Both the position numbers and the translations under genes were made by a program. Below the pieces are notes generated by a model. It was not told the DNA's origin. It saw only the letters and a list, made by a program, of their open reading frames with translations, and searched no databases. A stretch of DNA of 64,000 nt from Escherichia coli (GTDB lineage Bacteria > Pseudomonadota > Gammaproteobacteria > Enterobacterales > Enterobacteriaceae): the NCBI RefSeq assembly GCF_024502345.1, contig NZ_JALDNN010000001.1; one strand, written 5' to 3'. Positions 2,400-9,922 of this stretch are shown here, piece by piece (within the stretch, counting starts at the first letter, position 1; each line of letters starts with the position of its first letter).

Positions 2400-3470
2400 A
2401 TGAAAAAATTGATCAATGATGTGCAAGACGTACTGGACGAACAACTGGCAGGACTGGCGAAAGCGCATCCATCGCTGACACTGCATCAGGATCCGGTGTA
2501 TGTCACCCGAGCTGATGCCCCTGTTGCAGGAAAAGTCGCCCTGCTGTCGGGTGGCGGCAGCGGACACGAGCCGATGCACTGTGGTTATATCGGTCAGGGG
2601 ATGCTTTCGGGGGCCTGTCCGGGCGAAATTTTCACCTCACCGACGCCCGATAAAATCTTTGAATGCGCCATGCAAGTTGATGGCGGCGAAGGTGTACTGT
2701 TGATTATCAAAAATTACACCGGCGATATTCTTAACTTCGAAACAGCAACCGAGTTACTGCACGATAGCGGCGTAAAAGTGACCACTGTGGTCATTGATGA
2801 CGACGTTGCAGTAAAAGACAGTCTTTATACCGCCGGGCGGCGCGGCGTTGCCAACACCGTATTAATTGAAAAACTCGTAGGCGCAGCGGCGGAGCGTGGC
2901 GACTCACTGGACGCCTGTGCGGAACTGGGGCGTAAGTTGAATAATCAAGGCCACTCAATAGGTATCGCTCTCGGTGCCTGTACCGTTCCTGCCTCGGGCA
3001 AACCTTCTTTTACCCTGGCGGACAATGAGATGGAGTTTGGCGTCGGCATTCATGGTGAGCCGGGTATTGACCGCCGCCCCTTCTCTTCCCTTGATCAAAC
3101 CGTCGATGAAATGTTCGACACCCTGCTGGAAAATGGCTCATACCATCGCACTTTGCGTTTCTGGGATTATCAACAAGGCAGCTGGCAGGAAGAACCACAA
3201 ACCAAACAACCGCTCCAGTCTGGCGACAGGGTGATTGCACTGGTTAACAATCTTGGCGCAACTCCGCTTTCTGAGCTGTACGGCGTCTATAACCGCCTGA
3301 CCACACGTTGCCAGCAAGCGGGATTGACTATCGAGCGTAATTTAATTGGCGCGTACTGCACCTCACTGGATATGACCGGTTTCTCAATCACCTTACTGAA
3401 AGTTGATGACGAAACGCTGGCACTCTGGGACGCCCCGGTCCACACCCCGGCCCTTAACTGGGGTAAATAA
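2400..3470 (+). CDS. dhaK: Dihydroxyacetone kinase, DHA-binding subunit DhaK
   Basis: Translation MKKLINDVQDVLDEQLAGL... matches remembered DhaK (356 aa); start moved from the track ORF to the internal Met. Confidence 0.95.
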   Translation: MKKLINDVQDVLDEQLAGLAKAHPSLTLHQDPVYVTRADAPVAGKVALLSGGGSGHEPMHCGYIGQGMLSGACPGEIFTSPTPDKIFECAMQVDGGEGVLLIIKNYTGDILNFETATELLHDSGVKVTTVVIDDDVAVKDSLYTAGRRGVANTVLIEKLVGAAAERGDSLDACAELGRKLNNQGHSIGIALGACTVPASGKPSFTLADNEMEFGVGIHGEPGIDRRPFSSLDQTVDEMFDTLLENGSYHRTLRFWDYQQGSWQEEPQTKQPLQSGDRVIALVNNLGATPLSELYGVYNRLTTRCQQAGLTIERNLIGAYCTSLDMTGFSITLLKVDDETLALWDAPVHTPALNWGK

Positions 3471-5542: not shown

Positions 5543-5861
5543 ACCACCGTTCGGATGGCATCGTTCTGATGTCGTCCGGCAATTTACTCAGCACTAATGG
5601 TTTTTAACTACCTGTTATATTTTTCACCAATTTATGATGATTTTTCTTCGCTAATCACGAACCCAACGCCGCTGGCTGGCTAATAAACAGACGTTATTTG
5701 ATCACTCTTTTTCGCCGTTATTTATCCCTTTAATTCCCTTTTCTAAAATGCCTGACAGTTCGCAGAATGAGATTTCGATCATGCAGCTAGTGCGATCCTG
5801 AACTAAGGTTTTCTGATACTTGAATACCGTTTTATTCGGTTTCGCCTAAGGAGAATGATTG

Positions 5862-7559
5862 ATGAAATCCCCCGCACCTTCTCGCCCGCAAAAAATGGCG
5901 TTAATTCCAGCCTGCATCTTTTTGTGTTTCGCTGCGCTATCGGTGCAGGCAGAAGAAACACCGGTAACGCCACAGCCGCCTGATATTTTATTAGGGCCGC
6001 TGTTTAATGATGTGCAAAACGCCAAGCTTTTTCCGGACCAAAAAACCTTTGCCGATGCCGTGCCGAACAGCGATCCGCTGATGATCCTTGCTGATTATCG
6101 GATGCAGCAAAACCAGAGCGGATTTGATCTGCGCCATTTCGTTAACGTCAATTTCACCCTGCCGAAAGAGGGCGAGAAATATGTTCCGCCAGAGGGGCAG
6201 TCACTGCGCGAACATATTGACGGACTTTGGCCGGTATTAACGCGTTCTACCGAAAACACCGAAAAATGGGATTCTCTGTTACCGCTGCCGGAACCTTATG
6301 TCGTGCCAGGCGGACGTTTTCGCGAGGTATATTACTGGGACAGTTACTTCACCATGTTAGGACTTGCCGAAAGCGGTCACTGGGATAAAGTCGCGGATAT
6401 GGTGGCCAATTTTGCTCATGAAATAGACACTTACGGTCATATTCCCAACGGCAACCGCAGTTACTATTTAAGCCGCTCGCAACCGCCCTTCTTTGCCCTG
6501 ATGGTAGAGTTACTGGCGCAGCATGAAGGCGATGCCGCGTTGAAGCAATACCTGCCGCAAATGCAAAAAGAATATGCTTACTGGATGGACGGTGTTGAAA
6601 ACCTGCAAGCCGGACAACAGGAAAAACGCGTTGTAAAACTTCAGGATGGTACCCTTCTCAACCGCTACTGGGACGATCGCGATACGCCACGACCAGAGTC
6701 ATGGGTGGAAGATATTGCCACCGCCAAAAGCAATCCGAATCGACCTGCCACTGAAATTTACCGCGACTTGCGCTCTGCCGCTGCGTCTGGCTGGGATTTC
6801 AGCTCGCGCTGGATGGACAACCCGCAGCAGTTAAATACCATACGCACCACCAGCATCGTACCGGTCGATCTGAACAGCCTGATGTTTAAAATGGAAAAAA
6901 TTCTCGCCCGCGCCAGCAAAGTTGCCGGAGATAACGCGATGGCAAACCAGTACGAAACGCTGGCAAATGCCCGTCAAAAAGGGATCGAAAAATACCTGTG
7001 GAACGATCAACAAGGCTGGTATGCCGATTACGACCTGAAAAGTCATAAAGTGCGCAATCAGTTAACCGCTGCCGCCCTGTTCCCGCTGTACGTCAATGCG
7101 GCAGCGAAAGATCGCGCCAGCAAAATGGCGACGGCGACGAAAACACATCTGCTGCAACCCGGCGGCCTGAACACCACGTCGGTGAAAAGTGGGCAACAAT
7201 GGGATGCGCCAAATGGTTGGGCACCGTTGCAGTGGATCGCGACAGAAGGATTACAAAACTACGGGCAAAAAGAGGTGGCGATGGACATTAGCTGGCACTT
7301 CCTGACCAATGTTCAGCACACCTATGACCGCGAGAAAAAGCTGGTGGAAAAGTATGATGTCAGCACCACCGGAACGGGGGGCGGCGGTGGCGAATATCCA
7401 TTACAGGATGGCTTTGGCTGGACCAATGGCGTGACGCTGAAAATGCTGGATTTGATCTGCCCGAAAGAGCAACCGTGTGACAATGTTCCGGCGACGCGTC
7501 CACTCAGTGAATCAACAACACAGCCGGTAAAACAAAAAGAGGCGGAACCTACGCCTTAA
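5862..7559 (+). CDS. treA: Periplasmic trehalase TreA
   Basis: 565 aa from [11 protein letters not shown]..., signal peptide plus glycoside hydrolase 37 body; matches remembered TreA except a slightly different C-terminal tail. Confidence 0.95.
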
Positions 7560-7588
7560 CTTTGCTGTATATCGAGGCTGTATATCGA

Positions 7589-7629
7589 GCAATGCCATTA
7601 TGTGCATAAAATTGGCATTGCTCTTTTTT
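7589..7629 (+). terminator. Rho-independent terminator downstream of treA
   Basis: Stem GCAATGCCA / TGGCATTGC with a 15-nt loop followed by TCTTTTTT. Confidence 0.55.
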
Positions 7630-7853
7630 CGCCACGAAATGCCCCCCACTCTACGGTCTATGCCTTTATTTTCTTTTATTAGAGAAGATTTTAATTTTAT
7701 TTTATCAATTTGTTAATCATTACACCTCTATTTATATTTTTCGCCACTCCGCCATTCTCCCTGACAATTTTCTTGTGGAACAAAGTGTTATTTAAGCAAC
7801 AAGCAAATCACTCTGTCTCTTTAGACAAATTTTGACATCAAACATGATTTTTT

Positions 7854-7877
7854 CGATATATATGTAAATATATAGCG
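7854..7877. promoter_or_regulatory. AT-rich dyad CGATATAT-atgtaa-ATATATAGCG, candidate ModE-type (molybdate-responsive) operator 25-48 bp upstream of the accessory operon start
   Basis: Contains TATAT-N7-TATAT flanked by CG; 20 of 24 positions self-complementary; resembles the ModE operator consensus as I recall it. Confidence 0.35.
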
Positions 7878-7901
7878 GTTTTAATTATCAGGATATAACT
7901 T

Positions 7902-8924
7902 ATGTCACTAACCAGACGGAGGTTTACACAGATTCTTGCGTCGACGTTGTTCCTGCATCATCTGCCTTCTTTTGCACAATCAGTCAAATTCTGGGCCTCA
8001 CTGACGCTTCCCGAAGCCCAAAACATTACACGCATCGTCAGCGCAGGTGCGCCCGCCGATTTGCTATTGCTGGCTGTCGCGCCAGAAAAAATGGTCGGTT
8101 TTTCCTCTTTTGATTTTGCCCGTCAGGCATTAATTCCATTGCCAGAGCACATTCGCCAGTTACCCAGGCTGGGACGACTCGCCGGGCGCGCCAGCACACT
8201 CTCGCTGGAAGGGCTTATGGCGTTACATCCCGATTTGGTCGTTGATTGCGGCAATACGGATGAAACCTGGATCTCCCAGGCACGGCAGGTTAGCGAACAG
8301 ACACAAATACCCTGGTTATTGCTTAACGGGAAACTGGCGCAATCAGCAGAACAGTTAACAACGCTTGGCAAAACGTTAGGCGAAGAGCATCGCGCCGCAG
8401 AACAAGCCAATCTCGCCAGCCGCTTCGTTGGTGAAGCTCAGGCATTCGCCGCCTCACCCGCCGCTAACCTCCGCTTTTATGCTGCGCGCGGTCCTCGAGG
8501 GCTGGAAACGGGCTTAAAGGGTTCGTTGCATACCGAGGCGGCGGAATTATTAGGTTTGCACAACGTCGCGCAAATAGCCGATCGCCACGGCCTGACACAG
8601 GTTTCCATGGAAAATCTCCTGCGCTGGCAGCCGGATATTATTCTGGTTCAGGAGGCCGTTACTGCAGATTTTATTCGTCGTGATCCTCTCTGGCATGGCG
8701 TGAAAGCCGTTGCGGAACAACGCATCTTATTTTTAAGTGGCTTGCCCTTTGGCTGGCTGGATGCCCCACCGGGAATCAACCGTCTTCTGGGATTACGCAG
8801 ACTTCACGCCTGGCTGGATCCCGCCATCAATCGCCAGTTTAAAAGTGACATGCAGCATTACGCCCAACTGTTCTGGCATTGTTCACTCAGTGACGCCGAC
8901 TATCAAAAATTGGTGGCGAGCTAA
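7902..8924 (+). CDS. Periplasmic substrate-binding protein, FecB/BtuF-like (class III), with twin-arginine-like N-terminus
   Basis: 340 aa; N-terminus MSLTRRRFTQILASTLFL... (RRxF Tat-like motif followed by hydrophobic stretch); first gene of a tightly packed operon. Confidence 0.8.
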   Translation: MSLTRRRFTQILASTLFLHHLPSFAQSVKFWASLTLPEAQNITRIVSAGAPADLLLLAVAPEKMVGFSSFDFARQALIPLPEHIRQLPRLGRLAGRASTLSLEGLMALHPDLVVDCGNTDETWISQARQVSEQTQIPWLLLNGKLAQSAEQLTTLGKTLGEEHRAAEQANLASRFVGEAQAFAASPAANLRFYAARGPRGLETGLKGSLHTEAAELLGLHNVAQIADRHGLTQVSMENLLRWQPDIILVQEAVTADFIRRDPLWHGVKAVAEQRILFLSGLPFGWLDAPPGINRLLGLRRLHAWLDPAINRQFKSDMQHYAQLFWHCSLSDADYQKLVAS

Positions 8925-9922
8925 TGAGAATCGTAAACGGATGTATTTTGCTGCTGGCAGCTATCAGTATCACTTTTGCCGCCGTAAGTGGGGCTTATCA
9001 TCTCGATATGCAGCAACTGCTGGCGCTAATTCTTCGTCAAGAAAATGTTCCTGTGCAGGAACAAATTGTCTTCTGGCAAATCCGCGTGCCGCGTATTCTT
9101 GCTGCGCTGTTACTGGGCGCGGCGCTGTTACTGGGCGCGGCGCTGGCAGGAGCCGGAACCACTTATCAGGGAATGTTGCGTAATCCCTTAGTTTCACCGG
9201 ATATTTTAGGCGTCTCCGCCGGTGCCGGACTTGGTGCCTGCGCGGCAATCCTGTGGGGATTATCCATTGTTTACATCCAGCTGTACGCATTTTGCGGCGG
9301 GCTGATGGTGGTCGCGGGCGTCTGGTTGATTACGCGTCGGGTGACCCGCCACGATCCGATCTTAACCCTGGTGCTGGTAGGCATTGCGTTAGGAACGTTG
9401 TGCGGAGCGGGGATATCGCTAATTAAAACGCTGGCCGATCCTTACACCCAGTTACCGTCAATTACCTTCTGGTTGCTGGGGGGACTGTCCACCGTGACCT
9501 TACGCGATCTCTGCTATGCTGCACCGATCATTCTCATTGGCTCCTTGCCCCTGTTTTTTCTCCGCTGGCGCATGAATTTACTCACGCTTTCCGACGACGA
9601 AGCCCGTTCGCTGGGACTGAACGTGACGCGTCTGCGCTTTGGATTGATTGTCTGCGCCACACTAATCACCGCCAGTACGGTAGCAATAGCGGGCATAATT
9701 GGTTGGGTCGGCCTGGTCGTTCCGCACATTGCCCGCTTGTTGACCGGTCATAACCATCAGCAGCTGTTGCCCATGGCAATGTGTACTGGCGCGATTCTGC
9801 TCCTGCTGACCGATACGCTGGCACGCAGCATTGGAACAACAGAAATCCCACTTGGCATTCTGACCGCTTTTGTTGGCGCACCGTTTTTCCTGCTTTTGTT
9901 GTTACGCGGAGGTCGCCAGTGA
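8924..9922 (+). CDS. ABC transporter permease, FecCD/BtuC family
   Basis: 332 aa, highly hydrophobic multi-TM protein; start overlaps the upstream stop (ATGA-type junction). Confidence 0.85.
   Translation: MRIVNGCILLLAAISITFAAVSGAYHLDMQQLLALILRQENVPVQEQIVFWQIRVPRILAALLLGAALLLGAALAGAGTTYQGMLRNPLVSPDILGVSAGAGLGACAAILWGLSIVYIQLYAFCGGLMVVAGVWLITRRVTRHDPILTLVLVGIALGTLCGAGISLIKTLADPYTQLPSITFWLLGGLSTVTLRDLCYAAPIILIGSLPLFFLRWRMNLLTLSDDEARSLGLNVTRLRFGLIVCATLITASTVAIAGIIGWVGLVVPHIARLLTGHNHQQLLPMAMCTGAILLLLTDTLARSIGTTEIPLGILTAFVGAPFFLLLLLRGGRQ

Follow-up and report, generated by a model that had tools for sequence, protein, structure and literature searches.

In the stretch of Escherichia coli DNA analysed here (64,000 nt, hereafter the window), a 13-nt sequence is found twice in tandem just downstream of the trehalase gene treA, and its presence raises the question of how the doubled form arose, and whether it has any consequence for the genes on either side of it. 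The sequence GCTGTATATCGAG is read twice head to tail, with zero mismatches, at 7564-7589, and for the same interval Tandem Repeats Finder gives a period of 13 and a copy number of 2.0, with 100% matches and without indels. The perfect 13-bp tandem duplication reported by the first-pass annotation is therefore borne out by both methods, and the locus has the two adjacent, identical, head-to-tail copies that define a simple tandem duplication. Unit 1 (GCTGTATATCGAG, 7564-7576, plus strand) lies opposite a 13-column gap in the aligned sequences of Sakai, UTI89, MS6198 and Z1323HEC0422, and is taken here as the added copy when compared with most E. coli, the choice of unit 1 or unit 2 for this role being arbitrary. 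Unit 2 (7577-7589, plus strand) ends with GAG (7587-7589), which, from the reading and the fold discussed below, is the bottom of the stem of a terminator.

An exhaustive scan of the 64-kb window for perfect tandem duplications with a period of 10-30 returned two, namely the one at 7564-7589 and another at 9104-9145. The number expected by chance is about 0.001 per 64-kb window when calculated analytically, and a mean of 0.005 was obtained in 200 Markov-1 random sequences. Because the expectation is only about 0.001 per window, the 13-nt repeat is a true duplication, and a chance match is ruled out. An assembly artefact is ruled out as well, because the identical 89-nt stretch is present in 29 independent complete genomes.

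Two other readings of the sequence were considered and rejected. The window contains no further exact copy of the 13-mer, and matches with one or two mismatches occur at chance level; a dispersed intergenic repeat (REP/BIME/ERIC-like) was rejected, the 13-mer being without any other exact copy in the window. The sequence CTGTATAT was read as a LexA-box-like element, but on inspection the 16-mer of the doubled form is CTGT-N8-GCTG, and not CTGT-N8-ACAG.

The gene order in the window is dhaR-dhaKLM, treA, an accessory cluster, and the conserved ymgE-ycgR-emtA genes. The accessory cluster encodes a substrate-binding protein, a FecCD permease, an ATPase, a SAM-dependent methyltransferase, ModD and a TonB-dependent receptor. 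Its genes are co-oriented with treA; the first, for the substrate-binding protein of an iron-type ABC transporter (7902-8924, plus strand), begins 343 nt past the treA stop codon and is considered here for context only, as part of S-loop#83/OI#55, and it is followed by the ORF of the FecCD-type permease (8924-9922, plus strand). S-loop#83/O-island 55 is a prrA-modD-yc73-fepC-like iron-uptake cluster located by treA in O157:H7 and in UPEC strains (PMC1890555). The window resembles it in the gene order 3' of treA and in having the same treA terminator. However, the island as such does not entail the duplication: Sakai and the UPEC strains that carry the island have one unit.

In K-12-type genomes, ycgY occupies the position of the island, and the whole repeat sequence is missing. 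These genomes lose alignment to the window at about 7501-7519 (query bases 102-120), i.e. within the last ~19 codons of treA. Because the K-12-type alignment ends there, the junction between the backbone and the OI#55-type sequence is inside the treA coding sequence, near 7502, and is neither intergenic nor at the repeat. The repeat had been placed at the boundary of the upstream region of the accessory operon; its position by the end of treA stands, while the point at which K-12-type gives way to island-type sequence is to be moved ~60 nt upstream of it. The last ~19 treA codons (~7502-7559) are strongly divergent between island-bearing and K-12-type genomes.

Some further observations were made on the island side of the locus. 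The ABC operon is preceded by an AT-rich region of 342 nt, which contains two weak Fur-box-like 19-mers (7706-7724 and 7871-7889, each with 12 of the 19 positions of GATAATGATAATCATTATC) and a promoter-like site (7710-7738), all of which are named for their resemblance to consensus sequences only. The gene for the substrate-binding protein (7902-8924) is intact in the window, is frameshifted in strain 873.10 by a 1-nt deletion at window position 8286, and has internal stops in FDAARGOS_943 and OkiPb01695; in FDAARGOS_943 the permease is also truncated. In some lineages, the island cluster appears to be undergoing decay. In the RefSeq annotation of Sakai, ECs_5716 (3188-3388 in the locus, corresponding to about 7600-7800 in the window) is a hypothetical CDS of 66 aa that starts in the terminator; its counterpart is unannotated in PGAP-annotated genomes, and it is probably a spurious call.

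The treA gene, coding for the periplasmic alpha,alpha-trehalase, extends over 5859-7559 on the plus strand, and its ORF matches the NCBIfam model TreA (NF009774) with E = 0 and a score of 1259 bits; in the RefSeq annotation, the gene starts 3 nt later than the ORF start at 5859. The stop codon TAA is at 7557-7559, and the 13-nt repeat starts 5 nt past it. Further downstream, folding with RNA parameters predicts an intrinsic terminator of treA (7587-7629, plus strand), with an 11-bp stem, a 15-nt loop and a T6 tail: the stem strand GAGCAATGCCA (7587-7597) pairs with TGGCATTGCTC (7613-7623), and TTTTTT follows at 7624-7629. The predicted hairpin has a free energy of -18.6 kcal/mol (z = -3.9). 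A stable, G+C-containing stem-loop and then a T-run, located 3' of a co-oriented gene, is the arrangement of an intrinsic terminator, with termination predicted here from the fold. The ORF, the NF009774 match and the RNA fold thus agree with the earlier placement of the repeat between the treA stop codon and a terminator hairpin.

The 15-nt loop of this terminator is atypically long. The hairpin does not appear in the list produced by the promoter/terminator consensus scan, because that scan considers only loops of 3-8 nt. Searching Rfam at E <= 1 gave no family match for the intergenic region from treA to the ABC operon, and a known RNA or riboswitch there was rejected, since what Rfam returned was a miRNA hairpin and a fragment of a Bacteroidales sRNA, both far below the gathering scores.

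The repeat abuts the predicted terminator and also overlaps it slightly, because the GAG of unit 2 is the base of the stem. The predicted hairpin is nevertheless identical in the one-unit and two-unit alleles, in both minimum-free-energy and centroid folds, and no variation in the stem is seen among the six island-bearing sequences aligned. The coding sequence, the hairpin and the T-tract are all unaltered by the duplication, and the structural change is confined to the spacer between stop codon and hairpin in the treA 3' UTR (7560-7586, plus strand), which is 27 nt long compared with 14 nt in one-unit alleles. It should be added that a short minus-strand hairpin (5 bp, G+C-rich) with a T-rich run after it, at 7540-7556 within the end of treA, was flagged as terminator-like; it is probably fortuitous, as there is no nearby minus-strand gene to use it. 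The same bases also fold as a small plus-strand hairpin in the one-unit allele.

The distribution of the two alleles was evaluated with an 89-nt query built in such a way that one-unit genomes cannot reach 80% coverage. A full match at 100% identity, and hence the doubled form, was obtained in 29 of 5,426 complete E. coli genomes; for non-carriers among the records listed, the match starts exactly where unit 2 does. The island-type junction is present in ~2,140 complete genomes, and the doubled allele amounts to roughly 1.4% of those and 0.5% of all. A single unit is found in every island-bearing non-carrier inspected, among them Sakai (O157) and two B2 strains, UTI89 and MS6198. In the alignment, two units are present in the window and in the O18ac:H14 strain 873.10, and one unit in Sakai, UTI89, MS6198 and Z1323HEC0422, with the same terminator throughout. 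The carriers come from human, cattle, pig, chicken, fish, mink, wastewater and vegetable sources on several continents, and O169:H41 ETEC strains are among them. The suggestion that the duplication may be strain-specific is therefore to be abandoned in favour of a lineage-specific one, given its occurrence in 29 of the 5,426 genomes, in many hosts and countries, and on several recombinant haplotypes.

In all carriers, units 1 and 2 are identical to each other. A synthetic three-unit query found no three-unit allele in the 5,426 complete genomes; 12 apparent full matches to it were rejected as two-piece joins spanning 91 nt, i.e. two units. The repeat resembles the VNTR/MLVA loci of E. coli in that its copy number varies between strains and could serve as a lineage marker. 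However, such loci have at least three copy-number states or arrays of more than two units, while the 13-nt repeat has one or two copies in 5,426 genomes, with no longer arrays, and is not hypervariable.

As for the ancestral state, one unit was found in all 14 non-carriers examined in detail, which include B2, O157 and O145 strains and close haplotypes; in the divergent B2 haplotypes of UTI89 and MS6198, the single unit reads ACTGTATATCGAG. A single copy is thus present at the orthologous site in relatives within the species, and one unit is the ancestral state because all the non-carriers examined, the distant B2 and O157 strains included, have one. With the polarity set in this way by within-species diversity, the doubled form is a derived, lineage-restricted allele. 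Alignment with the treA 3' region of other strains, which the first-pass annotation had indicated as the way to check its reading, also refutes the idea of two units in all E. coli, only 29 of the 5,426 genomes being doubled. When the GTDB species representatives were scanned with the pattern CTGTATATCGAGN{0,26}CAATGCCA, the 18 hits obtained all came from unrelated taxa and none from Escherichia; about 15 are expected by chance according to our own estimate, calculated for 20 specified bases, 27 gap lengths, 298 Gb and two strands.

The history of the derived allele was studied on 4.2 kb of aligned sequence around the site, from 11 carriers (10 of the 29 database carriers and the window) and 14 non-carriers. 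In this set, no SNP between 7353 and 7679 is incompatible with the indel by the four-gamete test, which defines a conflict-free zone extending from the indel ~210 nt leftwards and ~90 nt rightwards. The outer flanks behave differently, with 41-49 sites incompatible with the indel by the same test, and at the dha locus, 3.5-6.5 kb upstream, carriers are mixed with non-carriers among the best matches of the window. These incompatible sites and mixed rankings make it evident that the flanks have clearly been shuffled by recombination.

Closer to the indel, the carriers PE164 and F2_81 have over 7236-7810 exactly the SNP haplotype of four one-unit genomes, and the other carrier core haplotypes differ from this common haplotype by carrier-private SNPs only, in a star-like pattern. 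Because there is no four-gamete conflict near the indel and the core haplotypes are star-like, the simplest reading of the alignment would be a single origin of the duplication, its spread by recombination, and subsequent mutation.

The same data could also be read in terms of a mutational hotspot, at which the duplication would have recurred independently (for example, in the window and 873.10 on the one hand and in the rest of the carriers on the other), or would have repeatedly collapsed to one unit. The number of treA haplotypes carrying the duplication is indeed four or more, and that of the core haplotypes, which are closely related, five or more. Moreover, the window and 873.10 form a branch of their own, apart from the other carriers, in the core tree (7300-7900), marked by the private 7649 C and 7680 T, and they lack the 7811 T present in the nine other carriers examined, so that all four gametes with the indel are found at this site among close haplotypes. 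Copy loss between 13-nt direct repeats is, in addition, a well-known RecA-independent event. Nevertheless, with the same end-points and no flanking microhomology, an exact independent recurrence is improbable a priori, and a hotspot sits poorly with the existence of only two allele states, and of not one three-unit allele, in 5,426 genomes. It is also at odds with the absence of four-gamete conflict within 7353-7679, and with the fact that all carrier cores can be derived from one common haplotype through carrier-private SNPs. Finally, the 7649 C and 7680 T private to the window and 873.10 are found in none of the one-unit genomes that come closest to the window at its two flanks (Combat11I9, 100181, L26 and PapRG-06-5). 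On balance, we regard recurrence or repeated collapse as unlikely, while conceding it some weight.

The end-points of the duplication also bear on the mechanism of a single origin. They are devoid of microhomology (7563 is T and 7576 is G; 7590 is C and 7577 is G), and the repeat has exactly 2.0 copies; the short direct repeat at the end-points that is typical of slipped-strand events is therefore lacking. Of the earlier description of the repeat as slippage-type, the tandem duplication stands, while slippage is an interpretation that the junctions, being without microhomology, do not directly support; this weakens the case for slippage specifically and leaves the class of tandem duplications unaffected. 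In its head-to-tail, short and perfect copy, in the one-unit ancestral allele of its relatives, in its two allele states and in its unchanged coding sequence, the locus resembles the small perfect tandem duplications that arise as replication-misalignment indels in bacterial intergenic DNA. It differs from them in the lack of junction microhomology, which is present in the 18-nt duplication at 9104-9145.

A one-off replication or repair misalignment would thus be the only reasonable source of the duplication. Such an event would have copied 13 bases next to the terminator stem, reaching three bases into the stem. The doubled allele would then have been maintained, effectively neutral, as a polymorphism within one haplogroup of the treA/OI#55 junction and, after what was most likely a single arising, would have been carried by homologous recombination onto other flanking backgrounds. 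To this reading as a whole, i.e. a derived 13-bp duplication produced by misalignment, effectively neutral, most likely of single origin and spread by recombination, we assign a probability of about 0.8.

The other perfect duplication of the window deserves a separate description. It is located 1.5 kb from the 13-nt repeat, at 9104-9145 (plus strand), inside the ORF of the FecCD-type permease (8924-9922), and consists of 2.3 perfect copies of an 18-nt unit (GCGCTGTTACTGGGCGCG). The reading frame is kept and the protein gains six residues (ALLLGA), with a length of 332 aa compared with the 326 aa annotated elsewhere. It has a 6-nt microhomology, as slippage predicts, whereas the 13-nt repeat has none. 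The duplication is missing from the closest genome, 873.10, and among the matches listed it is found in no complete E. coli genome, each match spanning 63 bases (81 minus 18), also in the only three records listed that reach at least 99% identity. Among the best 60 matches to the longer region, no span exceeds 4,285 bases, while the window has 4,301. The 18-nt duplication appears to be private to this strain. A third, degenerate array is present at 20831-20937, with 11.9 copies of a 9-nt unit (GACCTGGAG) and 61% matches. In 873.10 this region is annotated as a truncated hypothetical protein beside IS1, and the array is likely a repeat-containing coding sequence.

The assumption of neutrality has to be weighed against a possible effect of the longer spacer on termination. 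Transcription of treA is induced by osmotic stress and in stationary phase, and the genes downstream of treA are co-oriented with it and start 343 nt after its stop codon. The 27-nt spacing might free the hairpin from a ribosome paused at the stop codon, which would result in somewhat better termination and less read-through into the iron-uptake operon. A known system to compare is that of terminators sensitive to stop-codon distance (Li et al., Nucleic Acids Res 2016, PMC4824070); the likeness is that the present repeat lies in the stop-to-hairpin spacer, whose 14 nt it turns into 27 nt. In E. coli reporters, the efficiency of tR2 was almost nil at short distances between stop codon and terminator and ~0.9 beyond ~30 bp, with sequence-dependent values from 0.12 to 0.8 at 17-18 bp, and the effect was ascribed to the terminating ribosome hindering the folding of the hairpin (PMC4824070). 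Spacers of 14 and 27 nt are both within the range in which the efficiency of tR2 depended on distance (PMC4824070). It should be noted, however, that those data concern the tR2 terminator of phage lambda on reporter plasmids (PMC4824070), while in the treA terminator, which is predicted only, the stem is 11 bp long and the loop, of 15 nt, unusually large.

Several features of the locus speak against a functional spacing. The 14-nt spacer is retained in about 99% of the genomes with the island, and for this reason the shorter distance is evidently tolerated; no common ecology or host unites the carriers; upstream of the iron-uptake operon lies an AT-rich region of its own, of ~340 nt, with promoter-like and weak Fur-box-like sites; and island genes are decaying in some carriers, as in 873.10 (frameshift) and FDAARGOS_943 (internal stop). 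An effect of the spacing on termination is therefore improbable, and we would place little confidence in the view that the duplication is a natural "spacer mutation" insulating the OI#55 operon from treA transcription. Should it be true, nature would have supplied, in the alleles with one and two units, the means of testing the stop-codon-distance rule on a terminator in the chromosome.

It is, finally, extremely improbable that the repeat is a target-site duplication left by a transposable element that was inserted and then lost: a direct repeat with blunt end-points and no microhomology would agree with this, and some insertion sequences give duplications of 11-13 bp (IS4), but the two units are directly adjacent with no residual element sequence, neither an insertion between the units nor an element or its remnants by the repeats was seen in any of the 24 aligned orthologous loci, and, to the best of our knowledge, excision of a bacterial IS restores one copy or deletes the flanks, an outcome in which both copies are left not having been described.

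Misalignment followed by neutral persistence and recombination is accordingly the reading we retain, and the 13-nt duplication is probably a harmless indel polymorphism of an ordinary and known kind. It changes no protein, it neither makes nor destroys a regulatory element that can be recognised, and it is not a marker of the island boundary. Being found in 29 of the 5,426 complete genomes, the two-unit allele is at most a convenient marker of lineage and recombination for the treA/OI#55 junction, and the pair of natural alleles may be used for testing the effect of stop-to-terminator spacing on chromosomal termination.
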